Assembly: GCA_016867135.1 (NCBI GenBank)
Contig: VGKH01000002.1
Location: 6,312-70,311, forward strand
Reading direction: 5' to 3'
DNA from: Candidatus Omnitrophota bacterium
GTDB lineage: Bacteria > Omnitrophota > Gorgyraeia > VGKH01
Length of the DNA: 64,000 nt
In this document: positions 1 to 62,721 of the stretch, one piece after another
Numbering within the stretch: position 1 is the stretch's first letter
How the letters are laid out: each line of letters begins with the position of its first letter
Notes under the pieces: model-generated
Told to the model about the DNA's origin: nothing
The model's input: the letters and a program-made list of their open reading frames with translations, nothing else
Databases searched by the model: none
Made by a program: the position numbers and the translations under genes

Positions 1-485
1 TCTTAAGTGCGTCTAAACATGTCTCTGAAGCCATAATTTCCGTGGCTAGCCAGCACCACGAATGCGTCAACGGCAAGGGGTATCCTAAAAGATTAAAGGG
101 GCAAGAGATTAATGAGTGCGCAAAGATAGTGGCTGCAGCGGACTATTACGAGGCGCTTATGCATCCTCGCTCGCATAGGGAAAGGCTAAATCCCTATGAA
201 GCATTAAGGGTGTTAATAGAGAATAAAGAACGCTTTGATTACCGTGTTTTGAAGGTTTTAATCAAACAGATGGGCGTATATCCTATCGGAAGCCTGGTCC
301 AACTTAGTTCAGGGGAAATTGGTATCGTGGTAAAAACTAATAGCCAGTCCGCTTTAAGGCCCATAGTGAAGATTTTCTTTGATGCCCAAGGTAAAAGAGT
401 CGAGCAAGAAAAGAATATCGATTTAATAAAGTCTCCCACCATAGTTATTAAAAAACCAATCCAAGAAAAAGACCTAAATTTGTAA
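1..485 (+). CDS. HD-GYP domain protein, C-terminal part (5' end outside window; frame is open to position 3)
   Basis: HHE...GKGYP motif (HD-GYP signature) near start; ORF continues upstream without a stop. Confidence 0.7.
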   Translation, partial: LSASKHVSEAIISVASQHHECVNGKGYPKRLKGQEINECAKIVAAADYYEALMHPRSHRERLNPYEALRVLIENKERFDYRVLKVLIKQMGVYPIGSLVQLSSGEIGIVVKTNSQSALRPIVKIFFDAQGKRVEQEKNIDLIKSPTIVIKKPIQEKDLNL

Positions 486-503
486 AAATCGAGATTTATT
501 AAC

Positions 504-532
504 TTGACAGTCAGAATAAAATAACTTATTAT
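504..532 (+). promoter_or_regulatory. sigma70-like promoter TTGACA-N17-TATTAT upstream of peptidase/rSAM operon
   Basis: TTGACA 504-509, 17-nt spacer, TATTAT 527-532, 37 nt before the 569 start. Confidence 0.4.
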
Positions 533-568
533 AAGAAAAGAAGATAGGATATTTTAGTAATTTATCCG

Positions 569-1072
569 ATGGATAGCGTTGAGTTGATAAAACAGGCCGT
601 AGCTACTAAAGGCAAGGCCAATCTCTCCTTTAGCGGAAAAAGCATGCACCCAACCTTAAAAGATGCGATGGTCGTTACAATATCCCGCTTTTTGCCGGAA
701 TCCATAAGAGTTTCTGATATCATAGCCTACCAACAAAATAACCAGATAGTTGCCCACAGAGTCATAAAAATAATCAAAAATAATGGAGAAATTTCATTTA
801 TAACCAAGGGTGACAACCAGCCTTTTGGAGGAGTTAGCTTTGTCGGGCAAAAAGACTGCCTCGGAAAGATAAAGAATGCTTTTACTTCCAGTTTTTGCGA
901 AAAGAATATTTTAAATGAAAATTTATTATACAGGATGTCATACGTTTTAATAGGCAGGTTGTATTTATTTTATAGAGGCTTTATACGGCGCTACCTTCCT
1001 GAATTTTTAAGGATTATTATTCGGGGATTTGTCGGCAATGTTTATTTTTGTCTTCAAAAGTTATCAGCTTGA
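569..1072 (+). CDS. signal-peptidase-I-like (S26/S24 superfamily) serine peptidase, no N-terminal TM segment
   Basis: SGKSMHPTL (box B, Ser nucleophile), HRVIKI (box D-like with Lys), KGDNQPFGG (box E GDN); hydrophilic N-terminus. Confidence 0.55.
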   Translation: MDSVELIKQAVATKGKANLSFSGKSMHPTLKDAMVVTISRFLPESIRVSDIIAYQQNNQIVAHRVIKIIKNNGEISFITKGDNQPFGGVSFVGQKDCLGKIKNAFTSSFCEKNILNENLLYRMSYVLIGRLYLFYRGFIRRYLPEFLRIIIRGFVGNVYFCLQKLSA

Positions 1073-1082
1073 GAGGTAATTC

Positions 1083-3608
1083 ATGGTAACCCAAGTCATG
1101 CAGGAACAAAAAACGACACACTCTACGCTTAGTACGGTATATTTATATTTTTCCCAATATTGTAATTTAAGATGCCGTCACTGCTGGATAGACCCTAAGT
1201 TTGCCAAAGATAAGGCGCCTAAAAATGATGATATAGACATAAAGTCAATTATTTCTGCTTTAGAAGAATGCCGCCAGTTAGGGATGAATGCGGTTAAAGT
1301 GACCGGCGGCGAGCCTTTTCTCAGGGAAGATGTATTTGAACTTTTAGATTATTGTAAAAGTAAGAAAATACATTTAAGTTTTGAGACCAATGGCACTTTA
1401 ATTAAAGATGCCCATGCCCGCGCCTTGAAAGATGCCCGGGTGGGCTTGGTTGCTGTTTCTCTCGACGGCCCCAACGCCAAGATACATCAATTGCTAAGGG
1501 GCGTGGAAGATTCTTTTGACCAGGCAGTAGAAGGAATAAAGTCGCTCAAAGAATATGGTATCCATGTTCAAGTAATTATTTCGCTTTGGCGAAACAACAA
1601 AGATTATATCAAAGATACCATAGACTTATCCCGTTTGTTGGGCGTTAATTCGGTAAAGATAAATATTATTAGCAGTATTGCCAGAGCAGGTAAGCTTATG
1701 CAGGATAGCGAGATCTTAAGTGTTGAAGAAGTCATTGATTTTTATCAGGCATTAACTGGTCAACTGAGTAAAGAAACGCCGTTTGATGTTATTTTTGATA
1801 TTCCTCCGGCTTTTCGCTTCAAAGAAAATATCCAACAAGTAGATTCATGTTCTTGCGGTATCCACGGCATATTGGGCATATTGGGAGATGGAAAAATTTC
1901 CATTTGTGGGATAGGAAGTAGCCTGGATGCGCTTGTTTTAGGTAAAGTCGGACAGGATAGTATAAAGGACATCTGGAACAATCATCCAATCCTGGAGGAA
2001 ATCAGAGATAAAGTTCCTTATAAGTTAGAAGGAATTTGTGGTAAATGCAGTAAAAGATACTCTTGTTTGGGAAAATGTAGGGCTGAGGCTTATTATAATA
2101 GCAAAACATTTGTCTCCCCATTTTCATTTTGCCAACAGGCATACGAGCAAGGACTGTTCCCTGATTCTGCCATCAAGGAAGATTTAAAGACTAATAGATA
2201 CATAGCAAGAAATAATTGCGTAATTTCTTACCAAGATAACGGCGTAATTACAACCTGTCTTAGAAAGGGCCAGGATTATATCAAATTAGAAGGTTTTGAT
2301 GTTTGGCTTTGGGATCGATTAGGGAAAGTTGAGAAACTTTCTATTGCAGAAGTTGAATCTGAAGCCAGAAAATCTGGGATTTCTAAAGAAGGCGATAATG
2401 TTGAAAGAAAAATCGAAGACTTAATAAGATCTAATGTTGTTTCTTGTGTAGAAGAAACTATGGTTTGCAATCAAGATTTGGCGATCGACAGCAAGAAATT
2501 AAATAAGTATATGGCTATGCGCGATGCCTTGGTCAGGGAATTAAGCAGCGCCAAGAATTTCGGCAAAAAAGAGGATTTAAGCAATTTTCATCAAAACGCA
2601 GTTGAGACTATCGACGGGCATTTTGAAACCAAAGAAGTGACAGCTTCTCATTTGTTGCGTGAAAACAATCCGGCGTTGGGCGGATTAAATTACGGAGCCA
2701 AGCTTTTTGAGAAGGTCGAAAGCCTAAAGACAATAGAGAAAAACGCCAGAATTTTAGATGTGGGTTCGGGATTAGGGTTTACTTCCCGATCATTTTTACA
2801 ATCTCTGAAAGAGAAAAATCCCGATGTAGCAGCCAGCATAAGTTATATACTTTGCGATTTAACCTTTAAATTCTTGAAAAACCAAAAGAATCTCACTTCG
2901 GGATATCCTACAAGATTTATCCAGGCAAACGCCGAAGGCCCGCCGTTTAATAACAACAGTTTCGATATAATTCTTGCCAATGAAAACATCGCCGATTTTA
3001 CTTCGGTCAAGCTCAACAAGAAAGATGTTCTGGATTTCTTAGTTGGCAAGATTAAGCAAGAACATGTAGAAGACGCTTCAACAAGAAAGGCGCTAGAGTG
3101 GATAAAATCATCCTCAATTGACGTAAGCGACGCCCTTCCAGAATTCATATTTAATTTAGGGGCATTCGAGTTTATGAAGCAGATTAATCGGCTGCTAAAG
3201 GCTGGCGGCTTGGCTTTTGTTTGCGAATACGGAATCTTGCGGGGTTATCCCACCGCAGTGTATCTGCCGAATCACACCGAATATACCATACAATTTTCCC
3301 AGCTTATAAAATGCATAAAATCTTTAGGTATGGAGGTTGAGGTTCGTTCTCTTTTGGATTTTTTTGATTTTAATAAAGAAGAAGAGGTTGTCGACGAATG
3401 TTCCCTGAATTTTGTCTACGGAATTATGAAAAAAAACAATATCAATTTGCCGTATTTAGCCTATACTAAAGAAATGCTGGAAGAAAAAATAAACGGGAAT
3501 TTATTGTCTAATTTCAAGAATCTGAAATTTCTGAAGATCAGAGAAAAAATGGCTTGCATGAATATGGATACATTTTATGTTTTGTTAATTAGAAAAAAAG
3601 GAGGTTGA
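1083..3608 (+). CDS. radical SAM/SPASM-domain enzyme fused to a C-terminal class I SAM-dependent methyltransferase domain (841 aa)
   Basis: CNLRCRHC (CxxxCxxC) near N-terminus; Cys-rich SPASM-like region CSCG...CGKCSKRYSCLGKCRAEAY around aa 250-330; ILDVGSGLGFTS methyltransferase motif I around aa 560. Confidence 0.8.
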   Translation: MVTQVMQEQKTTHSTLSTVYLYFSQYCNLRCRHCWIDPKFAKDKAPKNDDIDIKSIISALEECRQLGMNAVKVTGGEPFLREDVFELLDYCKSKKIHLSFETNGTLIKDAHARALKDARVGLVAVSLDGPNAKIHQLLRGVEDSFDQAVEGIKSLKEYGIHVQVIISLWRNNKDYIKDTIDLSRLLGVNSVKINIISSIARAGKLMQDSEILSVEEVIDFYQALTGQLSKETPFDVIFDIPPAFRFKENIQQVDSCSCGIHGILGILGDGKISICGIGSSLDALVLGKVGQDSIKDIWNNHPILEEIRDKVPYKLEGICGKCSKRYSCLGKCRAEAYYNSKTFVSPFSFCQQAYEQGLFPDSAIKEDLKTNRYIARNNCVISYQDNGVITTCLRKGQDYIKLEGFDVWLWDRLGKVEKLSIAEVESEARKSGISKEGDNVERKIEDLIRSNVVSCVEETMVCNQDLAIDSKKLNKYMAMRDALVRELSSAKNFGKKEDLSNFHQNAVETIDGHFETKEVTASHLLRENNPALGGLNYGAKLFEKVESLKTIEKNARILDVGSGLGFTSRSFLQSLKEKNPDVAASISYILCDLTFKFLKNQKNLTSGYPTRFIQANAEGPPFNNNSFDIILANENIADFTSVKLNKKDVLDFLVGKIKQEHVEDASTRKALEWIKSSSIDVSDALPEFIFNLGAFEFMKQINRLLKAGGLAFVCEYGILRGYPTAVYLPNHTEYTIQFSQLIKCIKSLGMEVEVRSLLDFFDFNKEEEVVDECSLNFVYGIMKKNNINLPYLAYTKEMLEEKINGNLLSNFKNLKFLKIREKMACMNMDTFYVLLIRKKGG

Positions 3609-3609
3609 G

Positions 3610-3948
3610 TTGGGCAAAATAGGATCAGAAGGAAAGATTAAAAGAAAATATACCGAACCCTTGATTTTTGATATCGGCGGTCCTAGTTTGAACGTAGTGG
3701 GAGCTAGCGCTGTGTTATGTGCAGCTGGCTCTGGAGGTACCGCAAGATGTGGTTGCGGCGCAAGCGGTACTTATTCTCTATGCGGAACCGGGAGTAAAGT
3801 TGCCACATCTTGTGCAACCGGAGGTATATTCAACTCAAATAATAACTGCGGTGCAGGCAGCTCGGCTTCAAGATGTTGTAGCACTGGCTCTAGTGCTGGT
3901 ATCACCTGTTCTATTGGCAGCGGCGTTGGGGGGGTCACAGAGGTGTAA
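3610..3948 (+). CDS. candidate RiPP precursor peptide; TTG start 5 nt after AAAGGAGG; leader with ...LIFDIGG motif; 9-Cys Gly/Ser/Thr/Ala-rich core
   Basis: Strong SD 3598-3604; low-complexity core CAAGSGGTARCGCGASGTYSLCGTGSKVATSCATGG...CGAGSSASRCCSTGSSAGITCSIGSGVGG; sits between two rSAM/SPASM genes; codon-repetitive GC-rich DNA unlike surroundings. Confidence 0.65.
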   Translation: MGKIGSEGKIKRKYTEPLIFDIGGPSLNVVGASAVLCAAGSGGTARCGCGASGTYSLCGTGSKVATSCATGGIFNSNNNCGAGSSASRCCSTGSSAGITCSIGSGVGGVTEV

Positions 3949-4029
3949 GTTTAAAAAATAGATATTAATTTTTATTTGGTACATAATAGCCAATTAATTT
4001 CTAAATAATATAAATGGAATAAAAGAAAT

Positions 4030-5100
4030 ATGTATTCTGCCCCGCTTAATGTTTGTTTGCATATAACCAGTCGATGTAATTTGAGCTGTAAACACTGCCT
4101 TAACCGGGACCAGCCAGATTCCGAGCCTGATTTAACTACCGAAGAACTTATCAGCGTTATCGACCAGCTGGGCGAAGCAAGAGTTTTTCAGATAAGCATA
4201 TTCGGAGGCGAACCTTTAACCCATCCTGATTTTACTGTCGTGGTTGAACATCTCAATAAATATCCCTTTACACTTTCTTTAAATACCAATGCCACTTTAA
4301 TCGACCGCTCTATGGCTAAATGGCTAAAAAAACATAAAATAAGAGATGCTGTAGTTAGCTTTGATGGCTCTTGTCCTGAGATAATGGATAAAACCAGGGG
4401 CGAGGGTGTTTTTGCTAAAAATATCAAAGGCATAGAGGCGCTTTTGTCCGAAGGTATTTATGTTTTGCTTTCTGCCACTTTAACTAAAATAAATTATAAA
4501 GATGCAAGAGAAATGGTTTTGTTGGGCAAGAGATTAAAAGCCAATAAAATTCGTTTTAATCATGTATTTTTTGGTGGCAACGCCGCGTGTTTTATCAAAG
4601 AGGTTTATCTTTCCCCTGAACAGGAAAGAGAAGCTATAGAAGCGGTAGTCTCGGCAAATAAAGAATTTCCTGGCTTTATCGTTCAGGATAGCACCTATCT
4701 CAACCAGAAGGATAAATTAGAAGAAATGAAAGATTTCGAACCCGCTACAGATAAAATCACTGTTGCACCTTGCGGCGCCGCTTACCTTAAATGCGCCATA
4801 AGAGCAGATGGTTGGGTTATTCCTTGCGAGTTACTATGGGATGCTAAATGCGGCAATCTAAAGAATCAGAGTTTGACCGATATTTGGCAGAATTCCGAGA
4901 CTATGAATGAATTCAGAAGGCCGCTGGAATTAGATTTAAATGAAATACCTGAGTGCAAAGGCTGTAAATACCAATATATATGTTTTATCGGACACCGTTG
5001 TAACCCTTACTATTTTCCCGGCGGGGTTAAGGACCGTTCGGTTTATTGTTTGCTAGAGGGTAAAAAAGAGATGAGGAAGGTGGCTGATGTCGTTAAATAA
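4030..5100 (+). CDS. radical SAM/SPASM-domain peptide-modifying enzyme
   Basis: CNLSCKHC motif at N-terminus; C-terminal Cys cluster APCGAAYLKC...PCELLWDAKCGNL...CKGCKYQYICFIGHRCNPY typical of SPASM twitch/auxiliary clusters. Confidence 0.85.
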   Translation: MYSAPLNVCLHITSRCNLSCKHCLNRDQPDSEPDLTTEELISVIDQLGEARVFQISIFGGEPLTHPDFTVVVEHLNKYPFTLSLNTNATLIDRSMAKWLKKHKIRDAVVSFDGSCPEIMDKTRGEGVFAKNIKGIEALLSEGIYVLLSATLTKINYKDAREMVLLGKRLKANKIRFNHVFFGGNAACFIKEVYLSPEQEREAIEAVVSANKEFPGFIVQDSTYLNQKDKLEEMKDFEPATDKITVAPCGAAYLKCAIRADGWVIPCELLWDAKCGNLKNQSLTDIWQNSETMNEFRRPLELDLNEIPECKGCKYQYICFIGHRCNPYYFPGGVKDRSVYCLLEGKKEMRKVADVVK

Positions 5101-5356
5101 GAATCTTAAGGCGAACTCAAAGATAGTATTCCGAGAAGAAACAGATGATGCGCTTTTATTCGATCCTGATAGCGGAAATATAAAAGTTATCAATGAGACC
5201 GGAAAATTCATTTGGGCCAATTTAGACGGCAAAAACGATGAAGATTCCCTGGTAAAAAAGATTATGGATAAATTCGATATTTCCGACGAGCAAAAAGCCA
5301 GGGAAGATTTAGGTAAGTTCTTGGAAGATTTAAAAATACAGAAATTCTTGGAGTAA
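5087..5356 (+). CDS. PqqD-family protein (RiPP recognition element-like)
   Basis: 89 aa; DALLFDPDSGNIKVINETGKFIWANLDG pattern matches PqqD fold consensus (x-L-L-x-x-x-sG-x-x-x-LN-x-t-a-x-x-iW). Confidence 0.7.
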   Translation: MSLNKNLKANSKIVFREETDDALLFDPDSGNIKVINETGKFIWANLDGKNDEDSLVKKIMDKFDISDEQKAREDLGKFLEDLKIQKFLE

Positions 5357-5357
5357 G

Positions 5358-5621
5358 ATGAAGATAAAACAAGTAGAAGGCCTCCTTGTGGCTTCTTTTC
5401 CGAATAGTTCGGTAATATTTAATTGCAATAATCGCCGTTCTTATATATTGAACTATACAGCGTCTTTAATTTGGGATTTCTGTAAAAAGCCAAGAGATAT
5501 AGCTGAAATCGCCTGCTTCATTCATCGAAAATATGATTTAGTTTTATCAAAAGCACTCAGAGATGCCAGAAGTTTTGTTGCGCGACTTAAGAAAAGACAG
5601 CTTCTGTCTGTTGTCAGGTAG
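5358..5621 (+). CDS. second PqqD-like small protein
   Basis: 87 aa; SYILNYTASLIWDFCKKPRDIAEI resembles PqqD helix region; tandem with previous. Confidence 0.5.
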   Translation: MKIKQVEGLLVASFPNSSVIFNCNNRRSYILNYTASLIWDFCKKPRDIAEIACFIHRKYDLVLSKALRDARSFVARLKKRQLLSVVR

Positions 5622-5638
5622 CATAGAGAGAGACAACG

Positions 5639-6583
5639 GTGGGTTTATGTGCTTTTTTCATGAAGACCATAACTTTCAATATAGCCAATATTCCGTTATC
5701 GGTAAAATGTAGAGACGACGAAGCTCTACCGTCTTTATTCCAGCAATTCACAAGCACTGCCAAGAGACCAACTGATCGAACATGGCATTTAGAATCAGTA
5801 GGTATTAAGAAAAACAGATCCAATAAATTCCCTTCCTGTATTGCAAAGAAAATAAGCCCAATAGCAGAAAGATTTGGTTCCATCCGTAACTTTAGAGTTG
5901 ATTTAGAGAAGAAACAAAAGATTTTGTCTAGTGTTTATTCACAATTTCCGGAAGCGCTATCCGATATTTCCTTTTATTTTGACGAGCCAGTTGGAATAAA
6001 TACTAAAAAAAGAAAGATTAGGCATTTTTATACGAGCTCAACAGGATTTGATGAGATAAGGAAATTTGATTCCCGGCTGACTATTTTTGCCTATTCCCAA
6101 ATTTTAGCATCTTTAGAGGGGTTTCTTTTGCATTGCGCTTGCGTAGTAAAGAATAAAGACGCCTTTTTATTCTTTGCTAAATCAGGAGGAGGAAAATCCA
6201 CGGTTGCTAAGTTATCACGGCAATATACTGTTTTAGGAGACGATATAATTGCAGTTAGGAAAATAAACCATGATTTCGTAGCTTTTTCAACACCGTGGAA
6301 ACAAAAAAAGACTGCGAATAGACGAACCTTGTTTTCTGCTAGGATCAAAGCCGTTTTTTTCTTAAGAAAATCAAATAGAGTTTTATTTAAACCGTTAAAA
6401 TCGGATAAGGCATTAGTTAGATTTCTATCGCGATACATCCATTTCTTTTTGTATACTGAAAGGCCATTGGCAGATAAAATCTTTTTTACTGCAGCTGATT
6501 TCTTTAAGACAATCCCGGCTTACGAGATGCATTTTAGAAAATATGCAGATTTTTGGCCAAAGTTGGAGAAAATAATAAAATGA
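5639..6583 (+). CDS. HPr kinase-related P-loop protein (HprK C-terminal-domain-like)
   Basis: LLHCACVVKNKDAFLFFAKSGGGKSTVAKL...VLGDDIIAV resembles HprK C-domain Walker A and downstream Asp. Confidence 0.5.
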   Translation: MGLCAFFMKTITFNIANIPLSVKCRDDEALPSLFQQFTSTAKRPTDRTWHLESVGIKKNRSNKFPSCIAKKISPIAERFGSIRNFRVDLEKKQKILSSVYSQFPEALSDISFYFDEPVGINTKKRKIRHFYTSSTGFDEIRKFDSRLTIFAYSQILASLEGFLLHCACVVKNKDAFLFFAKSGGGKSTVAKLSRQYTVLGDDIIAVRKINHDFVAFSTPWKQKKTANRRTLFSARIKAVFFLRKSNRVLFKPLKSDKALVRFLSRYIHFFLYTERPLADKIFFTAADFFKTIPAYEMHFRKYADFWPKLEKIIK

Positions 6584-8340
6584 ACAAGCTTAACTTTAAG
6601 ATTATTTTGTCTTTTCTTAAATACTTAAAGCCATATTGGAAAAAAGAAGCTGTGGTTTGGCTTTTGAGTTTTGGAATAGCCGGGCTGTCTTTAGCTTATC
6701 CTTACATTGCCAAATTAGTTGTGGACAAGGCGTATCAGGAGAGAAACTGGACTTTATTTATTGAACTTTTGGTTACGGGAGGACTTGTATTTATAATTTC
6801 AAGTTTATTCCAGGTCGTGTCAAATTTCTTAAGAGAATACATAGATTTAAAGGTCCGCTTCGACCTGCAAAAAATTATATTCCAAAAAATAGAAAATTTG
6901 CCCTATAGCTTCTTCCAATTAAGGCCCACGGGAGAGTATATATATAAATCGCTTATTGAGAGCTCTCAGGTCTCCGACTTTATTACTTCTGTCGCCCCGG
7001 AGTTGTTTTATATTATCCCCAAATTCTTGTTGATATTCACCATTCTTTTCTTCATAAACTGGAAAATGGCTGTTTTTATTTTTGTTGTGGCGCCTGTTTT
7101 AAATATCCCGACATTTTTTATTGCGCGCAAGGTTAGAAAACAATCAGAGAAGTCGCTTAATAGTTCCCAGGACATATTGGAGACAGCCCGAGAATCATTT
7201 TCTAATATGCAATTGGTCAAGGTCTTTGGAAAAGAAAAGAAAGAAAACAGGCGTTTTGTGAAACAAATGATAAAAAATATTCGCTTAAGCATAATCAGCT
7301 TCAGATTGAACGCCTTCAGTTCTTTTCTAGAAAGCTGGGCTAATAAGTTGTTGCTTGGCCTGATAACTCTTTACGGCGGATACAACATTATCAAAGGCCA
7401 GATAAGTCTGGGCAGCTTTACCGCAATAATGCTTTATATAAATCAGCTGCTTGATTTGGAGAATTTGTTCGTTGGTTTTTTTGTGCACCGTCTTAATACG
7501 GGGCTTGTTTCCGTCCGGAGGCTTTCAGAGATTATGAATTCTTGGCCGCAAGAACTTGAAGATAAAAACACAAGGGCTATTTTACTGTCATCAGGAGAAA
7601 TAGAGTTTAGAGATGTCTCTTTCGGATATTATCCCAAGACGCCTATTTTAGAGCATATAAGTTTACATATAAAATCTGGTTCGTCAATTGGCCTGGTAGG
7701 AAACTCCGGCCGCGGCAAGACGACGCTCGTTAGTCTTATTGTAAAACTTTATCAAATTTCTGAAGGTGAAATCCTTGTCGATGGGCAGGATATTAACTTG
7801 ATAAAGAATAGCTCGCTTCGCCAGCAAATAGGAGTGGCATTGCAAAAGCCAATCTTGTGGAATGATACCATTCGAAACAATATAACATATAGTATTTTAA
7901 GCGCAACTGATGAGGAAGTTCTGCAGGCAGCAATGATTTCCTGCGCTTACGATTTTATCAAAGAGCTACCGCGAGGCTATAACACTATTATGGGAGAAGG
8001 GGCGGTGCGCCTTTCCGAAGGGCAGAAACAGAGGATTTCTTTAGCAAGGGCAATCATAAAAAAGCCAAAGATTTTAATTATAGATGAAGGCATGTCTTCG
8101 CTTGATTCTCAGACCGAGGACAGTATCATTGATAACATAAAAAAGGAGCTGAAAAACACAACCATGATTGTTATTTCCCACCGTTTATCCACAATAAAGA
8201 AGGTGGATAGGGTTTACTTTTTAGAAAAGAAAGATAAAATGAGTTTTGGCCATCACGAAGAGTTGCTACATCAAAATCCTCAATACAAAGAACTATTCGC
8301 TAGTCAGATAGAAGAAGAGCATATCAAAATAAAATCATAA
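6553..8340 (+). CDS. ABC transporter, fused permease/ATPase (type I exporter, peptide-export-like); no N-terminal C39 peptidase domain
   Basis: 6 predicted TM helices then Walker A GNSGRGKTT, signature LSEGQKQRISLARAI, Walker B ILIIDEGMSSLD, H-loop ISHRL. Confidence 0.85.
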   Translation: MAKVGENNKMNKLNFKIILSFLKYLKPYWKKEAVVWLLSFGIAGLSLAYPYIAKLVVDKAYQERNWTLFIELLVTGGLVFIISSLFQVVSNFLREYIDLKVRFDLQKIIFQKIENLPYSFFQLRPTGEYIYKSLIESSQVSDFITSVAPELFYIIPKFLLIFTILFFINWKMAVFIFVVAPVLNIPTFFIARKVRKQSEKSLNSSQDILETARESFSNMQLVKVFGKEKKENRRFVKQMIKNIRLSIISFRLNAFSSFLESWANKLLLGLITLYGGYNIIKGQISLGSFTAIMLYINQLLDLENLFVGFFVHRLNTGLVSVRRLSEIMNSWPQELEDKNTRAILLSSGEIEFRDVSFGYYPKTPILEHISLHIKSGSSIGLVGNSGRGKTTLVSLIVKLYQISEGEILVDGQDINLIKNSSLRQQIGVALQKPILWNDTIRNNITYSILSATDEEVLQAAMISCAYDFIKELPRGYNTIMGEGAVRLSEGQKQRISLARAIIKKPKILIIDEGMSSLDSQTEDSIIDNIKKELKNTTMIVISHRLSTIKKVDRVYFLEKKDKMSFGHHEELLHQNPQYKELFASQIEEEHIKIKS

Positions 8341-9545
8341 TGGTCAAGATATCTCAGTCAAAAGAGAATAAAGCTTGGTTTAGCTCCCAAACGATTAATT
8401 TTTTAACCTGTTGTAGCCGCACAATTATAGACGAAGAAGTTACAGGGAAAATAAAATCTTTAATAGCGCCTGATTTAGATTGGCCAGCCATAATTATAAA
8501 AGCCAAAAATCAAGGGGTGGCACAATTTTTATATTTCCACCTGGCAAAATTAGAAGAAGTTTGGTCGATTGTGCCCGATGAATTAAAAAAAGAACTAAGA
8601 GAATTTTATCATAGAATTTTAGCTAATAATTGGTTGATTCAAAACGAGCTTAAGAAAATAATCCCGTTATTAGATCGTGTTTGCATCGAAGTTATTGTTT
8701 TAAAAGGAGCAAGCCTTCTTGGGTCGGTATATAAAAATATAGCCTTTCGTCCGATGATCGATGTGGATTTATTGGTTAGAAAACAAGATCTGCCCAGGGC
8801 AAAAACTATTCTACATGATATAGGATATCGAAAGCCAGATTTTCTAGATCAACAGAGTTTGGAGAAATTCGGAGGAGAAATTCATCTTTATAAAAATGGA
8901 GGAGTTTTTCTAGATATTCATACGACTTTATCCCAGTATGAGCGTTTTGAGGATATTCTAAAAATCGATTCCGACGAAGAACTTTGGAATAAAACAAGAA
9001 GATTTAATAATGGTGAGGGCGAAATTAGGATGCTTGGGCCCGACCATCTGCTTATGCATTTATGTATGCATCAGGCATTGGCTCATTGGTTTGCTGGATT
9101 ATTTCGTTTCTGCGATCTTCGTGAAACCATTTTGGCTTATAAAGAAGAATTGGATTTTGAATATATAATAAAAAAAGCAAGAATATACAAGATAAATAAA
9201 ATTCTTTATTTTGCCCTTTCTTCTGTGCAGGAACTTTTTGGTCCGATATTGCCTCAAGATTTCTTAGCTAATCTGCAGTATAAACATAGGCTAACTATTA
9301 GTATAGGCTGTTTTCTTTTTAGAAAAAAGATCTTATCTTTACCTGACAAAGAAGTAGCATTTCGGAAATCTATAAATCAGTTGTTTTTGATGGATAATTT
9401 TTCAGACTTGCCTCAAATTATATTTAAAGGGTTTTTTCCTTCCGATGATTGGCTCAGGTATAGATATGGAGTCAGAAGTAGGATAAAATTATTTTTTTAC
9501 CGTTTAATCCACCCCTTCATTACAGCATTTAATATTCTTTCCTAA
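8340..9545 (+). CDS. uncharacterised nucleotidyltransferase-family protein (PF14907-like)
   Basis: FRPMIDVDLLVRKQD motif typical of this nucleotidyltransferase family; size ~400 aa. Confidence 0.5.
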   Translation: MVKISQSKENKAWFSSQTINFLTCCSRTIIDEEVTGKIKSLIAPDLDWPAIIIKAKNQGVAQFLYFHLAKLEEVWSIVPDELKKELREFYHRILANNWLIQNELKKIIPLLDRVCIEVIVLKGASLLGSVYKNIAFRPMIDVDLLVRKQDLPRAKTILHDIGYRKPDFLDQQSLEKFGGEIHLYKNGGVFLDIHTTLSQYERFEDILKIDSDEELWNKTRRFNNGEGEIRMLGPDHLLMHLCMHQALAHWFAGLFRFCDLRETILAYKEELDFEYIIKKARIYKINKILYFALSSVQELFGPILPQDFLANLQYKHRLTISIGCFLFRKKILSLPDKEVAFRKSINQLFLMDNFSDLPQIIFKGFFPSDDWLRYRYGVRSRIKLFFYRLIHPFITAFNILS

Positions 9546-9576
9546 CTCCTTCTTTGGCAAAAGTTTAAGTCTTTTC

Positions 9577-9605
9577 TTGACTTTAGGGTAATTATTAGAT
9601 ATATT
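9577..9605 (+). promoter_or_regulatory. sigma70-like promoter TTGACT-N17-TATATT ahead of EPS operon
   Basis: TTGACT 9577-9582, spacer 17, TATATT 9600-9605. Confidence 0.35.
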
Positions 9606-9634
9606 AAAAGGAAAGTATATATAATTTATTAATT

Positions 9635-10699
9635 ATGCATAAATTTATTAAGATTTATAGTAGAAGGTTTTTTCTGGTCATTTTTATTTCCATTTTTATT
9701 AGTTCTTGTTCAGCCGCAAAAAGACAACAGCAATTCTCCGCGGATTTAAGAAAAGCCGCATTAAAACTCGCCCAACAGGATAGTTTTCCCAAGAATGATT
9801 ATTATACAATCGACCAGGACGATATACTTGATATAACAGTATGGAAGTCTTTAGGCTCAAAAGAAGGAGAGGCGGAAAAGGAGTATTTTATTAACGATGG
9901 CGATCAATTGGAAATTTCTGTATGGCAATGGCCAGACCTTTTAAGAAACGTTGTCGTTCGTCCCGACGGGAAAATTTCTTTTCCTTTAGTAGGAGATATC
10001 CAGGCAAAGGGGAAAACTTTAACCGCATTGGATGATGAAATTACCGAGAAACTTTCTTCTTTTATTAAATCTCCCGAGGTTTCAGTAATGATAACAGCAT
10101 TTGGGGCAGAGCAAGAAGGTTTCTTAAAGCCGGAGATATCTTTTGTTAAAGTTAATGAGTTGAGCGCAGAGCAGGCAGTGGCTCCCGACGGTAATATTTA
10201 TTTGCCTTTAATCGGAGCGGTTCAGGCTTCCGGCTTAACGTTAAATCAATTAGGTTTGAAGATAAAGGATAGCGTCGCTCAATTTGTCCAGAATCCGGAA
10301 GTCTCGGTTACTATCAAACAATTCGGTGGTAGAAAACTTATTGTCTTGGGGGAAGTTACCGATCCGGGAGTATATCTTTTTACCGGGAAAGCGACTGTTT
10401 TGGAAGCCATCGGTTGGGCAGGGGGCTACACCAGAAACGCCGTTTTAAAAAACGTGCTTGTTATAAGGGGGAATTTATCTAAACCGGAAGTTTTTAATCT
10501 GAATTTGCGCAGTGTGCTGGATAAAAAAGATATGAGCCAGAACCTAGCAATTCAGGCAAGAGATGTAATATATGTTCCCAGGACTGTTGTTGCTGAAGTA
10601 AGCCATATTTTATCACAATTGCTTGGCCCTTTGACAAGTTCATCGAGCGCAGTTACTGCTATAAAGACTATCAGGACTGGGCCTAGCCCCAAGAAATAA
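9635..10699 (+). CDS. polysaccharide export outer-membrane lipoprotein (Wza/EpsA family; Poly_export + SLBB)
   Basis: Lipobox ISSC after signal peptide; repeated PDG..ISFPLVGDIQAKG / PDGNIYLPLIGAVQASG SLBB motifs. Confidence 0.8.
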   Translation: MHKFIKIYSRRFFLVIFISIFISSCSAAKRQQQFSADLRKAALKLAQQDSFPKNDYYTIDQDDILDITVWKSLGSKEGEAEKEYFINDGDQLEISVWQWPDLLRNVVVRPDGKISFPLVGDIQAKGKTLTALDDEITEKLSSFIKSPEVSVMITAFGAEQEGFLKPEISFVKVNELSAEQAVAPDGNIYLPLIGAVQASGLTLNQLGLKIKDSVAQFVQNPEVSVTIKQFGGRKLIVLGEVTDPGVYLFTGKATVLEAIGWAGGYTRNAVLKNVLVIRGNLSKPEVFNLNLRSVLDKKDMSQNLAIQARDVIYVPRTVVAEVSHILSQLLGPLTSSSSAVTAIKTIRTGPSPKK

Positions 10700-10700
10700 A

Positions 10701-12620
10701 ATGCCACAATACGAATTAAATATTCAAGATTATTTAAGAATCCTCCGGAAGAGAAAATGGATAATTTTTCTTACCATAATTTCTACTTTCGTTGGAACCA
10801 TAACTTACAACAATCTTCAAACTCCTGTCTATAGCGCTAGCGTCTCAATCAAGATAGAAGTGCGTCAAACCGCGATAGCCGCGCTTACTGAGACTATTTT
10901 AGGATACGGCTATGATGTATTGGCCACCGAGCAGAAAGTTATAACCGGCCGTCCCGTCGTGGAAGAGGCGGCAAGGCGCCTGGAGCTATTCTCCAAAAAT
11001 GCCTCGCAGGACGAAATTGATTTTATAGTAAGCGATATACAGGCCGGTTTGAATTCAATCACCGACCAGATTTCTTCAATTATTTTGCTAACTGTGGAAT
11101 CCGACCAGCCGAAAAAAGCCCGGGATATCGCCAATAAAATAGCAGAAGTTTACATCGAAGAGAACCTAAAACAGAGAAGCAAAGAGGCAACCCAGGTTAG
11201 AGATTTTATTGAGAAACAACTATCTGATGTGGAGACAAGACTACACGCTTCGGAAGATGCGTTGGCAAAATTCAGGGAGCAAGAAGCGGTTACCGGAGTG
11301 GCGGTGGGTCTGGAAAACCGCCTTGGAACATTAAAGGCGCAATTATCTGATTTATTAACTAAGGCAACCGAAAAACATCCCGACGTCCAGCGCTTGGAGG
11401 AACAAATCAAAGAAGCGGAGGACGAGCTAAAGAAACTTCCTCAGGCCGAACTGGAATTCGCCAGGCTTGAGCGCGACGTCAACGTCAATGAAAAGCTTTA
11501 TACAATGTTAAGGGAGAAATTTGAGGAGGCAAGGATTTCTGAGAAAGGAATGGTTTCTCAGGCAACGGTAGTCAATCCCGCGGTAGAGCCAAGAGTCCCT
11601 ATAAAACCAAACAAAAGATTCGCCGCGGTTGTGGGAGTAGTGGTGGGAATGATGCTAGGTTTGATTCTGGCATTTGTTACTGAGAGCTTGGACACATCTA
11701 TCGGAACAATAGAAGACGTTGAGAACTTGTTAAAAGTTCCAGTGTTGGCGATAATTCCTTCCATAAAGACGGAGGTCGCCGAAGAAAAACCTTGGTGGAA
11801 GCGGGGAATTTTTCCGCAAATGCAACAGACTAAAGAGGAGGAAAGAGAGGCGGCGCTCTCTGTGCTTTTTAAACCGCTATCTCAGATTGCCGAATCATAT
11901 AGGATATTAAGGACCAATCTTAAAATATCCGATACGAAAAAAGCTTTTCTTGTAACAAGCTGTGGGCCTCAAGAGGGAAAGACAACTGTTTTAGTGGGCC
12001 TAGGCATTACCTTGGCGCAGATGGGGATAAAGACGCTTCTAATCGATTCAGACCTCAGGCGTCCGTCGGTACATAAAAAACTCGGTATCACTAAAGAATC
12101 TGGAGTAAACGAGATCGTTAATAAGTCAATAACCTGGCAAGATGCGGTTAAAGGACTGCCGGATATTTTGATGGGAGAATTAGGCTTTGACGATGCGCTT
12201 AAGAATCCCGGATTAGACAATTTGAGCATAATTACTGCCGGTGCATCTTCTAACAATCCTTCAGAGTTATTGGGTTCAAAGACTATGGAGTCATTGCTAG
12301 CTGAATTCAGAGACAATTTTGACGTAATCTTGTTTGATTCTCCTCCCAGCTTGGCAATAACCGATGCCTCTGTGCTTGCGCCTTTGCTTGATGGGGTAGT
12401 AATTGTTTATGAGATGGGCAGGACCGCAAGGGCCGCGCTGTTAAGAGCAAAGGTTCAGTTAGAATCTGTCGGCGCAAATGTCCTAGGAGTGGCGCTTAAT
12501 CATATCAAGCCAGAAAGCGAAGTAGCAACTGGTTATTATCCATATTATTATCATTATAAATACAAATATGCCGAGAAGCAAAAGGAAGAAAAAGAATCTC
12601 ACCATCAGGAGTCTACATAA
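10701..12620 (+). CDS. polysaccharide co-polymerase/BY-tyrosine autokinase (Wzc-like: chain-length determinant + P-loop kinase + C-terminal Tyr cluster)
   Basis: N-terminal TM + Wzz-like coiled region; Walker A SCGPQEGKTT; Walker B VILFDSPP; C-terminal YYPYYYHYKYKY. Confidence 0.85.
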   Translation: MPQYELNIQDYLRILRKRKWIIFLTIISTFVGTITYNNLQTPVYSASVSIKIEVRQTAIAALTETILGYGYDVLATEQKVITGRPVVEEAARRLELFSKNASQDEIDFIVSDIQAGLNSITDQISSIILLTVESDQPKKARDIANKIAEVYIEENLKQRSKEATQVRDFIEKQLSDVETRLHASEDALAKFREQEAVTGVAVGLENRLGTLKAQLSDLLTKATEKHPDVQRLEEQIKEAEDELKKLPQAELEFARLERDVNVNEKLYTMLREKFEEARISEKGMVSQATVVNPAVEPRVPIKPNKRFAAVVGVVVGMMLGLILAFVTESLDTSIGTIEDVENLLKVPVLAIIPSIKTEVAEEKPWWKRGIFPQMQQTKEEEREAALSVLFKPLSQIAESYRILRTNLKISDTKKAFLVTSCGPQEGKTTVLVGLGITLAQMGIKTLLIDSDLRRPSVHKKLGITKESGVNEIVNKSITWQDAVKGLPDILMGELGFDDALKNPGLDNLSIITAGASSNNPSELLGSKTMESLLAEFRDNFDVILFDSPPSLAITDASVLAPLLDGVVIVYEMGRTARAALLRAKVQLESVGANVLGVALNHIKPESEVATGYYPYYYHYKYKYAEKQKEEKESHHQEST

Positions 12621-62346: not shown

Positions 62347-62422
62347 TGCCCCTGTAGCTCAGTCGGCAGAGCACGTCCTTGGTAAGGACGGGGTCATCGG
62401 TTCAATTCCGATCGGGGGCTCC
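62347..62422 (+). tRNA. tRNA-Thr (anticodon GGT)
   Basis: 76-nt cloverleaf, 7-bp acceptor stem, anticodon loop TTGGTAA, TPsiC arm GGTTCAATTCC, encoded CCA. Confidence 0.9.
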
Positions 62423-62648: not shown

Positions 62649-62721
62649 AGGAGCGTCGGTTAACGGTAAACCACCGGTCTCCAAAACCGGGACTGCGGGT
62701 TCAATTCCTGCCGCTCCTGCC
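62649..62721 (+). tRNA. tRNA-Trp (anticodon CCA)
   Basis: 73-nt cloverleaf, anticodon loop CTCCAAA, conserved position upstream of secE. Confidence 0.9.

Follow-up and report, generated by a model that had tools for sequence, protein, structure and literature searches.

Among the systems that resemble the locus described here, the closest is the SynChlorMet (SCM) cassette, for which ScmA, C, D, E and F have been modelled (NCBIfam TIGR04248-04252, Pfam PF27840). In the HPr-rel-A system, an HprK-related kinase A (TIGR04352), a PqqD protein (TIGR04353) and a nucleotidyltransferase are associated with exosortase polysaccharide loci; it is not known to include radical SAM enzymes or a Cys-repeat precursor. 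The freyrasin system (PapA/PapB) has a precursor with six C-x3-D units, and peptidase-containing ABC transporters carry a C39 cysteine-protease domain fused to the exporter. In the lasso peptide systems of paeninodin, pseudomycoidin and BsfA, an HPr-kinase homologue phosphorylates a Ser on the linear precursor and a nucleotidyltransferase of the PF14907 type adds a hexose to the phosphate (PMC8498205, PMC10368454), this family being known to glycosylate phosphorylated lasso peptides (PMC8498205). In a lasso system, the recognition protein speeds the phosphorylation of an internal Ser; the same study examined how the YxxPxL motif, conserved at positions -17 to -12 of lasso precursors, affects phosphorylation and the removal of the leader (PMC10368454).

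The window under analysis is a stretch of 64,000 nucleotides from the genome of an uncultured Omnitrophota bacterium. Its segment 504-9545 is read here, with a probability of about 0.7, as one functional unit, i.e., a SynChlorMet-lineage cassette for the maturation and export of a RiPP-type product, whose nine genes (Table 1) most likely modify and export a small cysteine-repeat peptide. A previous sequence-only reading had proposed a RiPP biosynthetic operon with an exporter and a Cys/Gly/Ser-rich precursor; the present data support this proposal and show the precursor to be genuine and conserved, and all domain calls of that reading were borne out. It had also regarded the system as undescribed, which cannot be maintained, since the core (two radical SAM/SPASM enzymes, a PqqD protein, an HprK-fold protein and a small precursor) is already modelled as SynChlorMet, and the module of kinase, PF14907 enzyme, RRE and ABC exporter is known from phosphorylated/glycosylated lasso peptides (PMC8498205, PMC10368454). 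Rather than being wholly unknown, the operon is thus related to the catalogued SCM cassette, from which it has diverged and which it exceeds in parts. The same reading recognised no characterised product family with this architecture; in agreement with this, a literature search found no paper naming the SynChlorMet cassette or its accessions and, as far as that search reached, the cassette has no characterised product.

Table 1. Features of the cassette and of its boundaries (positions in the window).
Feature	Coordinates	Strand	Evidence
Sigma-70-like promoter candidate, TTGACA-17-TATTAT	504..532	+	consensus match only, 11/12 positions
S26-family (archaeal/SipW-type, Ser/His) peptidase, proposed leader peptidase	569..1072	+	TIGR02228 63.8 bits (cut-off 51.85)
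ScmF-like radical SAM/SPASM maturase + methyltransferase	1083..3608	+	TIGR04251 ScmF 338.8 bits (cut-off 400); Radical_SAM 98.2, SPASM 28.3 bits
Precursor peptide, 112 aa	3610..3948	+	conserved ORF; leader + seven C-x-x-G core
ScmE-like radical SAM/SPASM maturase	4030..5100	+	TIGR04250 ScmE 167.3 bits (cut-off 400); Radical_SAM 78.9, SPASM 43.4 bits
PqqD-type recognition protein 1 (PqqD1, ScmD orthologue)	5087..5356	+	PqqD 53.2 bits; ScmD TIGR04248 58.4 bits (cut-off 100)
PqqD-type recognition protein 2 (PqqD2), separate orthogroup, lasso-B1-like	5358..5621	+	PqqD 41.7 bits
ScmC-like PEPCK/HprK-fold P-loop kinase	5639..6583	+	ScmC 45.4 bits (cut-off 125); probable start ATG 5660
Half-size ABC exporter, membrane + ATPase domains, without peptidase domain	6580..8340	+	ABC_membrane 120.5, ABC_tran 102.3 bits
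PF14907 nucleotidyltransferase	8340..9545	+	NTP_transf_5 162.3 bits
3' boundary of the unit, spacer ahead of Wza-like gene	9546..9634	+	identity jump vs L021

In a profile search, the best NCBIfam matches of four genes were ScmF, ScmE, ScmD and ScmC, and PF27840 was assigned in the precomputed annotation. No cassette enzyme reaches the trusted cut-off of the Scm models, which counts against the family assignment, and the window precursor gave no match to the ScmA model (TIGR04252); one precursor relative, P0075, matches it at 1.4e-5 over 48 of its 49 positions. The same core is found in two loci above the Scm cut-offs, L014 and L015 (ScmC 198-201, ScmE 570-583 and ScmF 487-613 bits), both of which also possess an S24/S26 peptidase, while L015 also harbors an ABC exporter and a precursor with YxxPxL and C-x-x-G motifs. 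The present Omnitrophota form lies below all Scm trusted cut-offs and has added parts, namely the second PqqD orthogroup, the methyltransferase fusion and the PF14907 nucleotidyltransferase; moreover, its precursor, with 112 residues and seven repeats, differs from the 49-position ScmA model. The sequence-only reading had mentioned neither the SynChlorMet relationship nor three features discussed below: the fused methyltransferase, the leader motif of lasso type and the exopolysaccharide genes in the surroundings.

The nine genes are, as previously described, tightly packed on the same strand, the gaps between consecutive genes being 10, 1, 81, -14, 1, 17, -4 and -1 nt; the exporter gene probably starts at ATG 6580 rather than at the listed 6553. 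The promoter candidate lies in the 83-nt spacer between an HD-domain gene (ending at 485) and the first cassette gene and is the top-scoring sigma-70-like site within positions 1-11000. Its description as consensus-like holds, but there is no general enrichment of promoter-like sites (37 vs 30.2 +/- 5.3 in shuffles), so that this single match is only suggestive. At the 3' end, the nucleotide identity to L021 rises from 0.47-0.70 to 0.89-0.97 at about 9546-9634; in genomes that are nearly identical, the divergence of the cassette greatly exceeds that of its flanks, with identity breakpoints at both of its ends.

The 112-aa ORF is a real, conserved precursor. Its TTG start is preceded by GGAGG, 5 nt upstream, and gene calling on assemblies of this same sequence from other samples also predicted it. 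Homologues are present at the homologous loci L007, L008, L010 and L011, and more distant relatives in L009, L012, L013 and L015-L019; the precursors adjoin the enzymes in Omnitrophota, Planctomycetia and Thermoflexales loci. In all ten pairwise comparisons, pN (0.40-0.46) was lower than pS (0.59-0.80), i.e., the ORF is under purifying selection and conserved in frame, which dispels the doubt, raised in the sequence-only reading, that it might not be conserved. The leader (residues 1 to about 31) contains Y14-T-E-P-L-I19-x3-G23 at 3649-3678; the lasso-type motif Y-x-x-P-x-[LIVM] is found in 20 of the 20 relatives collected, and the distance from the leader Tyr to the first Cys is exactly 23 residues in 12 window-type sequences. 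The core, which is long, repetitive and fast-evolving, embeds seven of the nine Cys residues in C-x-x-G units (3718-3918); the relatives have 3-10 such units, spaced by about 10-11 residues, and in 18 homologues 131 of 148 Cys fall within C-x-x-G (32 +/- 5 in shuffles). At about 80 residues, this core is of unusual length for a RiPP, which counts against the reading preferred here.

As for the maturases, CX3CX2C and CX2CX5CX3C motifs can be read directly in the translation of the ScmF-like gene. This gene is made up of a maturase (about 1128-2171), a middle region (about 2181-2700) and a class-I SAM methyltransferase (about 2712-3608; Methyltransf_11 31.4 bits over residues 558-639, with further Methyltransf_25/28 matches), whose closest solved counterpart is LahSB (6uak, E 8.6e-4); the methyltransferase is missing from L010, L011 and L017 and is fused to the S26 peptidase in L009. 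The solved chains closest to the ScmE-like protein are SkfB (6efn), CteB (5wgg) and SuiB (5v1q). By sequence rank, both enzymes are nearer to AhbD/NirJ, MftC, PqqE and WgkB than they are to AlbA and PapB, which form thioethers and whose models give only 67-69 bits, far under their cut-offs; therefore, C-C bond formation or oxidative decarboxylation might be catalyzed instead. The arrangement recalls ranthipeptides and sactipeptides, in which a radical SAM/SPASM maturase and a recognition domain act on short, regularly repeated Cys motifs; however, the motif is C-x-x-G rather than C-x3-D, two distinct maturases are obligatory and the thioether is putative.

The gene of PqqD1 overlaps the ScmE stop by 14 nt, and its orthologues form the N-terminal domain of ScmE in L009, L016 and L017 (from the sequences) and in L018 (from the Pfam annotation); these fusions support PqqD1 as the partner of the ScmE-like enzyme. 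It also shows a weak cross-match to TIGR04353 (25.1 bits, under cut-off). The best NCBIfam match of PqqD2 is lasso_PqqD_Bac (35.8 bits, cut-off 80); its orthologue immediately follows ScmF in L009, L012 and L017, with the same gene order in L018, which suggests that it may serve the ScmF-like enzyme and/or the kinase. Modelling assigns the ScmC-like protein, with confidence, to the P-loop kinases of PEPCK/HprK fold. The PF14907 nucleotidyltransferase is present in all Omnitrophota-type cassettes and was not detected within the examined stretches of L012-L015. With lasso systems, the cassette shares the YxxPxL leader motif, a discrete PqqD-type recognition protein, the HPr-kinase homologue, the PF14907-type enzyme, the ABC exporter and an Ile/Val rather than a Thr at leader position -2 (PMC8498205, PMC10368454). 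It differs from them in that the lasso cyclase and B2 protease are replaced by a pair of radical SAM/SPASM maturases and an S26 peptidase, and in having about 80 residues of Cys repeats instead of a 15-25-residue lariat.

The peptidase appears to be soluble, as previously proposed, since no 19-residue segment exceeds a Kyte-Doolittle mean of 1.11 and hence no transmembrane helix is predicted. Eleven homologues linked to such cassettes retain its residues S25/M26/P28, H63/R64 and G81/D82, and an S24/S26 gene is present in L013-L019. In L012 (Planctomycetia), a homologous S26 domain (PF10502, 4.4e-8) is fused to the N-terminus of the ABC exporter, for which reason the S26 protein is regarded as the leader peptidase. 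In the window exporter, the membrane domain begins at residue 37, leaving no room for a C39 domain; in related loci, the exporter gene comes after ScmC, directly in most of them and with intervening short genes in L009 and L013. The coupling of leader removal to export and the L012 fusion recall C39 transporters, from which the system differs in having a separate, apparently soluble Ser/His enzyme of the S26 family instead of a papain-like one, and in lacking a conserved double-Gly site.

The data show which genes are present and what they are homologous to, the conservation and motifs of the precursor, the fold of the kinase, the catalytic residues and the limits of the unit. A pathway can be proposed, whose chemical steps, order and product we infer. 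Both PqqD-type proteins would bind the precursor through the Y-x-x-P-x-I leader, and both radical SAM/SPASM enzymes would act on the seven C-x-x-G units. By analogy with ranthipeptides and sactipeptides with repeated Cys motifs, the likeliest product, which we put forward only tentatively, would bear one small Cys-derived thioether ring per unit, a proposal based only on the invariance of the Cys and Gly residues. The fused methyltransferase would add methyl groups, as an accessory step, since it is absent in sister alleles. The kinase would phosphorylate the peptide, probably at a Ser/Thr often following Gly, and the PF14907 enzyme would then decorate the phosphate with a nucleotide or a sugar, as suggested by paeninodin and BsfA (phosphorylated) and pseudomycoidin (phosphoglycosylated). 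The kinase substrate is uncertain, since Ser/Thr has no fixed position after C-x-x-G (it is at +4 in 59 of 131 units) and is rare in the L012 and L015 precursors. Lastly, the cytoplasmic S26 peptidase would cut the leader at or beside residues 29-31, where a [V/L]-x-G is conserved, and the exporter would secrete a product of roughly 80 residues, a step supported by the fusion in L012.

The cassette lies at the start of an XrtA-type exopolysaccharide locus, and it might, with a rather low probability, be a working part of this system. The maturation steps would be the same and only the fate of the product would differ, the exported Ser/Thr/Gly-rich repeat peptide being a matrix component or a glycan acceptor/primer rather than a free bioactive peptide. 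The adjacency of the nucleotidyltransferase to Wza-Wzc-Wzy_C genes is kept in the window-type loci L007, L008, L010, L011, L020 and L021 and, at only 27-37% amino-acid identity, in rearranged type-B loci (L017, L018, L022 and L023 in full, L025 as far as the contig runs). Genes for GT2, a sugar transferase and a deacetylase lie ahead of the Planctomycetia cassette L012, while in L019 three PMT_2 GT-C glycosyltransferases surround the nucleotidyltransferase gene instead. In the window, the downstream genes pass export and deacetylase models of the XrtA system, and no terminator-like site was found between 9545 and 9635; an HD-GYP-like gene always neighbours the cassette. Such a conserved proximity to polysaccharide genes hints at a role beyond that of a free secreted peptide. 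On the other hand, the polysaccharide genes of L021 are 89-97% identical (nucleotide) whereas its cassette is only about 50-56% identical (protein), so that the two are not co-adapted; the spacer has two promoter-like sites of its own (9577-9625), in L016 the genes after the second cassette belong to pyrimidine biosynthesis, the Wzy_C protein matches O-oligosaccharyltransferase models at 28-31 bits only, and no complete polysaccharide locus of this kind is seen in the SCM loci L013-L015, L014 having a weak, distant Wzc-like match. The sequence-only reading had aptly pointed to HprK-related/PqqD/nucleotidyltransferase neighbourhoods: as in the HPr-rel-A system, an HprK-fold kinase, a PqqD protein and a nucleotidyltransferase are found here next to a polysaccharide locus, in this case of XrtA type, although all matches of the window and its relatives to its models, including those of ScmC from L012 and L014 to TIGR04352, are under cut-off.

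It is very improbable that the peptide gives rise, in the manner of PQQ or mycofactocin, to a redox cofactor or metal-binding prosthetic group acting inside the cell: the solved or curated proteins closest to the maturases include PqqE and MftC and the regular Cys array could bind metal, but the dedicated exporter and leader peptidase are constant (and fused in L012), the unit contains no cofactor-dependent dehydrogenase, and the long, repetitive, fast-evolving core is unlike cofactor precursors. That the radical SAM proteins belong to the anaerobic sulfatase-maturating enzymes, weakly similar as they are to anSME structures, or that the locus is a lasso cluster, as the leader, PqqD2 and the kinase-PF14907 pair could suggest, is in effect refuted, since the genes that would define either are missing: the sulfatase maturase model TIGR03942 is outside the best 25 families listed for either protein and no sulfatase gene lies nearby, the unit has neither an asparagine-synthetase-like cyclase nor a transglutaminase-like B2 protease, and the only AsnB-like gene (25591-27447), 16 kb away, scores 590 bits as an XrtA amidotransferase against 282 as a lasso cyclase.

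Nine genes of the same strand, separated by gaps or overlaps of only a few nucleotides in most cases (10, 1, 81, -14, 1, 17, -4 and -1 nt), form the compact cassette at 569-9545 that had been recognized in the sequence-only reading. The consensus-like promoter that had been placed in front of it heads the ranking of promoter-like matches (see the table below), though such matches as a class are not enriched overall in the first 11 kb. Identical copies of the window have been assembled from the JGI metagenome samples 3300020109, 3300020074 and 3300020603 and from three SRA runs. The list of domains previously assigned to these genes (two radical SAM/SPASM enzymes, two PqqD proteins, an S26 peptidase, an ABC exporter lacking a C39 domain and a PF14907 nucleotidyltransferase) was recovered, except that it had omitted the methyltransferase domain of gene 2, the larger radical SAM gene. 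The absence of a C39 domain follows from the position at which the membrane domain of the exporter starts, and the S26 peptidase has no hydrophobic segment of transmembrane grade.

Features of the nine-gene cassette (window coordinates)
Feature	Position	Strand	Remarks
Promoter candidate, TTGACA-17-TATTAT	504-532	+	Best promoter-like match in the first 11 kb
S26 peptidase	569-1072	+	TIGR02228 (archaeal/SipW-type), 63.8 bits, cut-off 51.85
Radical SAM + SPASM + C-terminal class-I methyltransferase domain (gene 2)	1083-3608	+	
Precursor ORF, 112 aa	3610-3948	+	TTG start 5 nt past GGAGG
Second radical SAM + SPASM enzyme	4030-5100	+	
PqqD protein 1 (PqqD1)	5087-5356	+	
PqqD protein 2 (PqqD2)	5358-5621	+	
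ScmC-like protein	5639/5660-6583	+	Pfam match at P-loop level only
ABC exporter	6580-8340	+	Membrane domain from residue 37
PF14907 nucleotidyltransferase	8340-9545	+	162 bits

The cassette is an expanded variant of the uncharacterised SynChlorMet (SCM) system, to which a module common to phosphorylated lasso peptides is joined. The operon contains the SCM gene set, i.e., two radical SAM/SPASM enzymes, a PqqD protein, ScmC and a small precursor, and the best matches of its proteins are ScmF, ScmE, ScmD and ScmC, all with scores below the cut-offs; the system had thus been called undescribed with too much emphasis. The best NCBIfam match of gene 2 is ScmF (TIGR04251), with 338.8 bits, covering positions 3-352 of the 353-position profile (cut-off 400, not reached; 613 and 487 bits in the canonical loci L014 and L015), and that of the second enzyme is ScmE (TIGR04250), with 167.3 bits (cut-off 400, not reached; 570-583 bits in canonical loci). 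PqqD1 matches ScmD (TIGR04248) best, with 58.4 bits against a cut-off of 100, which is not reached, PqqD2 having 21 bits. For the ScmC-like protein, the best NCBIfam match is ScmC itself (TIGR04249, 45.4 bits, cut-off 125); the identical protein carries PF27840 ("ScmC") in a precomputed annotation, and a local Pfam scan gave no PF27840 match. As regards the precursor family ScmA (TIGR04252, cut-off 35 bits), the window peptide has no match at E <= 10, though its homologue P0075 is matched with 25.2 bits (E 1.4e-5) over 48 of 49 model positions, which ties the precursor family to SCM. The precursor of L015 is also missed by this model, though the ScmC, ScmE and ScmF of that locus exceed their cut-offs, suggesting that the ScmA model is narrow.

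The peptidase and the exporter had been regarded as modules normally belonging to other classes of peptides. L014 and L015, both above the Scm cut-offs, have in common with the window an S24/S26 peptidase besides ScmC and the two radical SAM/SPASM enzymes, and a PqqD gene as well as an ABC exporter are additionally present in L015; in L013, where ScmE (399.6 bits) and ScmF (343.3 bits) lie just under the cut-offs, a set of the L015 type including the exporter is found. The peptidase (L013-L015) and the exporter (L013 and L015) are therefore regular companions of SCM genes rather than foreign modules. The co-occurrence counts are small, since the diversity of the 51-sequence ScmC alignment made it unsuitable for scanning loci, and narrower alignments retrieved only three genome loci and six metagenome loci. 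A literature search for the name of the cassette, its accessions and its proteins found no paper naming them, and the SCM product appears to be uncharacterised in the literature.

The precursor is real and obeys a clear rule, that is, a leader of the YxxPxL type followed by a C-x-x-G unit every 10-11 residues. The ORF was gene-called in every assembled copy and is conserved in frame in four related loci (L007, L008, L010 and L011) in which the remaining cassette proteins share 46-73% identity with those of the window; in all ten pairwise comparisons pN (0.40-0.46) is lower than pS (0.59-0.80). The original interpretation of the locus as a RiPP biosynthetic system is supported. A word-index homology search with the precursor gave no matches, and a full phmmer search of 1.84 billion representative proteins gave ten, of which eight are further small homologues; the other two, P0068 and P0076, are spurious repeat proteins and were discarded. 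A similar peptide is found in a locus of Planctomycetia (L012, on the opposite strand), in one of Thermoflexales (L013), in the canonical L015, and in the Omnitrophota-type cassettes L009 and L016-L019; the window contains no second copy. In 18 precursor sequences, 131 of the 148 Cys residues fall within C-x-x-G (32 +/- 5 in shuffled cores), the units being spaced by 10 (52 cases), 11 (25) or 12 residues (16), and 59 of the 131 units have Ser or Thr at +4. The leader motif Y-x-x-P-x-[LIVM] is present in 20 out of 20 precursor sequences (Y14-T-E-P-L-I19 in the window). In the 12 window-type precursors, the first Cys lies exactly 23 residues after the Tyr, and Tyr+15 to Tyr+17 read [V/L/A]-[V/L/A/F]-G.

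In an alignment of 51 ScmC sequences, H165, G185, K186, T188 and D201 are invariant and S187 and D202 nearly so; we take this pattern of His, P-loop and Asp-Asp to be the HPr kinase motif. The ScmC-like protein combines the fold of the HprK/PEPCK P-loop kinases with their His, G-x-G-K-[ST] and Asp-Asp motif. The ScmC profile matches PDB sequences at the P-loop level only, so that a structure prediction was needed. A kinase of this fold would be a core enzyme of SCM, not an accessory one. The register of the precursor can be compared with that of lasso peptides: their leaders conserve Y-x-x-P-x-L at -17 to -12, a motif whose influence on phosphorylation and on removal of the leader was tested for BsfA, and Ile/Val at -2 is a feature reported for the phosphorylated lasso peptides in particular (PMC10368454). 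The window precursor shows Y14, P17, I19 and V29, followed by G31, in the same register.

The leader motif and the PqqD-type recognition protein are shared with lasso peptide clusters, and the cassette might accordingly be read as one of them; neither the asparagine-synthetase-like macrolactam cyclase nor the transglutaminase-like B2 leader protease is found among its nine genes, and this assignment was rejected. An AsnB-like amidotransferase gene does occur at 25591-27447, with the XrtA amidotransferase as best match (590 bits, cut-off 817) and 282 bits to the lasso cyclase; lying 16 kb off the cassette, it is probably unrelated to it. That the radical SAM proteins might instead be sulfatase maturases, a possibility raised at the outset, is contradicted by the absence of the anSME model TIGR03942 from the best 25 families listed for them, by the lack of a sulfatase gene in the cassette and by the precursor motif, which is C-x-x-G, not C/S-x-P/A-x-R. 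A double-Gly/C39 processing site at D-I-G-G was dismissed, as there is no C39 domain and the G-G at precursor residues 23-24 is unconserved in distant precursors.

Gene fusions and gene order in related cassettes bear on which parts work together. The PqqD1 gene overlaps the stop codon of the ScmE-like gene, and its product is orthologous both to the N-terminal domain of the PqqD-ScmE fusions of L009, L016 and L017 (a fusion annotated also in L018) and to the product of the PqqD gene adjoining ScmE in L012 and L015. PqqD2 belongs to a separate orthogroup; its best NCBIfam match is lasso_PqqD_Bac (Bacillus-type lasso B1; 35.8 bits, cut-off 80), and its orthologue is located directly 3' of ScmF in L009, L012 and L017, the gene order of L018 being identical. 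The S-M-x-P-T Ser box, the H-R box and the G-D box of the S26 peptidase are kept in 11 cassette-linked homologues. In L012, the exporter (10461-12527) carries an N-terminal S26 domain (PF10502, 4.4e-8), an S26 analogue of the C39 peptidase-containing ABC transporters of which we know of no prior description; L009 encodes a methyltransferase-S26 fusion (8826-10004), and ScmE-ScmF and ScmF-ScmC fusions occur in L014 and L013, respectively. These fusions argue for one common substrate of all the parts, and for the S26 enzyme as a leader peptidase coupled to export; a Ser/His peptidase in this role would be a testable rule for SCM. A conserved region of gene 2 between the SPASM and methyltransferase domains (residues 367-473; 2181-2501) is colinear with the PqqD profile in hhalign, with a weak score (E 0.007, probability 5.5%), and may represent a third, degenerate recognition domain. 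The AlphaFold2 model of the C-terminal 475 residues of gene 2 (8 sequences) had a pLDDT of 42.9 and was left out of the fold search. In the rearranged cassette of L009, AbiEii genes are interspersed, and a homologue of PRMT5-like arginine methyltransferases (18297-19310) has a weak C-terminal PqqD match (E 0.049).

On the basis of these data and of analogy with known systems, a series of maturation and export steps can be proposed. The PqqD proteins would bind the precursor leader, and the ScmE- and ScmF-like enzymes would modify the C-x-x-G units. One small Cys-derived thioether ring per unit is the favoured outcome, because no core residue is invariant other than the Cys and the Gly that follows it three positions on; repeat-motif ranthipeptides are the model for this analogy. 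By sequence rank, AlbA and PapB are more distant from both enzymes than AhbD/NirJ, MftC, PqqE and WgkB are, so that other radical chemistry may take place instead; the enzymes' similarity to AlbA, PapB, StsB and SkfB amounts to only 67-88 bits, far under the cut-offs. The methyltransferase domain of gene 2 is accessory; among solved structures, the RiPP methyltransferase LahSB is the closest to it (E 8.6e-4). The kinase, aided by a PqqD protein, would then phosphorylate Ser/Thr on the leader-bearing peptide, as in paeninodin, BsfA and pseudomycoidin, and the PF14907 enzyme would add a sugar or a nucleotide to the phosphate, as proposed here from the phosphorylated lasso peptides (PMC8498205, PMC10368454). 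Cleavage by the S26 enzyme would take place at [V/L]-x-G or next to it, in keeping with the rule of a small residue at -1 and an aliphatic one at -3, and export of the product would fall to the ABC protein.

The comparison with related loci also revealed the boundaries of the cassette. In L021, a very close relative, Wzc and Wza are 99% and 92% identical to those of the window at the amino acid level vs. only 51-56% for the cassette proteins, and nucleotide identity changes from 0.47-0.70 across 5300-9450 to 0.89-0.97 from about 9750, with a breakpoint within the 9546-9634 spacer. The 3' end at 9545 is thus as originally drawn, and the 5' end falls between the upstream HD-domain gene and the peptidase gene. 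In L011 and L007, identity to the window is 0.78-0.85 in the flanks vs. 0.40-0.72 in the cassette, the precursor being the lowest. Judging from these alignments, the cassette behaves as a replaceable, fast-evolving, hypervariable island, which suggests either allelic replacement or diversifying selection. Its gene content varies as well. The methyltransferase domain is present in the window and in the L007-L009 alleles; the L011 allele, devoid of this domain, has a third radical SAM gene (C-N-G-Q-C-I-F-C; 8568-9704) between the two PqqD genes, and gene spacing points to such a gene in L020 too, where a gap of equal size is found at this position. In L019 (12727-18562), three PMT_2-family GT-C glycosyltransferase genes around the PF14907 gene replace Wza/Wzc. 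L016 (1-13753) and L022 (2827-13434) each contain a tandem pair of SCM-like cassettes; the first one of L016 includes a GNAT-like gene and a precursor candidate of 43 aa that has just one C-x-x-G, and an IS (DDE_Tnp_1) is located between the two cassettes.

Downstream, the cassette is followed on its strand by an XrtA/PEP-CTERM-type exopolysaccharide locus (9635 to about 34845). The products of this locus include an export protein above its model cut-off (TIGR03027, 186.6 bits vs. 180) and a deacetylase that likewise exceeds its own (TIGR03006, 323.5 bits vs. 276.2), together with Wzc, Wzy_C, GT4/GT9 transferases, two flippases, an amidotransferase, a WecA-like transferase, three methyltransferases and a PEP-CTERM-type ATPase; the ORFs scanned included no exosortase gene. 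The adjacency of the nucleotidyltransferase gene to Wza is kept even in rearranged loci, at 27-37% identity, and the L012 cassette adjoins glycan genes too; no such polysaccharide locus was seen in L016 and in the SCM loci L013-L015. This supports, without proving it, a functional link of the cassette to the cell surface. A bolder reading, to which we assign a probability of roughly 0.12, is that the cassette makes a multiply cross-linked, phospho-decorated repeat peptide of about 80 residues, which would be exported and serve as acceptor or anchor for the glycan of the XrtA-type locus; attachment might then occur via the Wzy_C-family protein, or via the PMT_2 GT-C transferases in L019. If this unlikely reading were true, a conjugate of ribosomal peptide and polysaccharide would be the surface matrix of Omnitrophota, surface variation would arise from rapid allelic swaps of the peptide cassette next to polysaccharide genes that stay constant, and a function would be assigned to the widespread sets of HprK-like, PqqD and PF14907 genes adjoining exopolysaccharide loci.

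Independently of the conjugate, the cassette links radical-SAM peptide maturation with the lasso kinase/nucleotidyltransferase module and with exopolysaccharide loci, and, together with its relatives, it supplies a testable precursor grammar for SCM, for which HMMs exist. To our knowledge, no member of the Omnitrophota has been cultured that could be used for such work; the nine genes are so compact that they could be reconstituted directly in a heterologous host. An Rfam scan of the window returned two tRNA genes only (62348-62420 and 62649-62719). The segment 42-485 is the 3' part of a 376-aa gene (complete in L001, 7805-8935) encoding an HD_5/HDIG protein with a weak match to c-di-GMP phosphodiesterase response regulators; this gene is a constant neighbour of the cassette, lying upstream of it in loci of the window type and, in L017, L018, L022 and L023, within the polysaccharide part.
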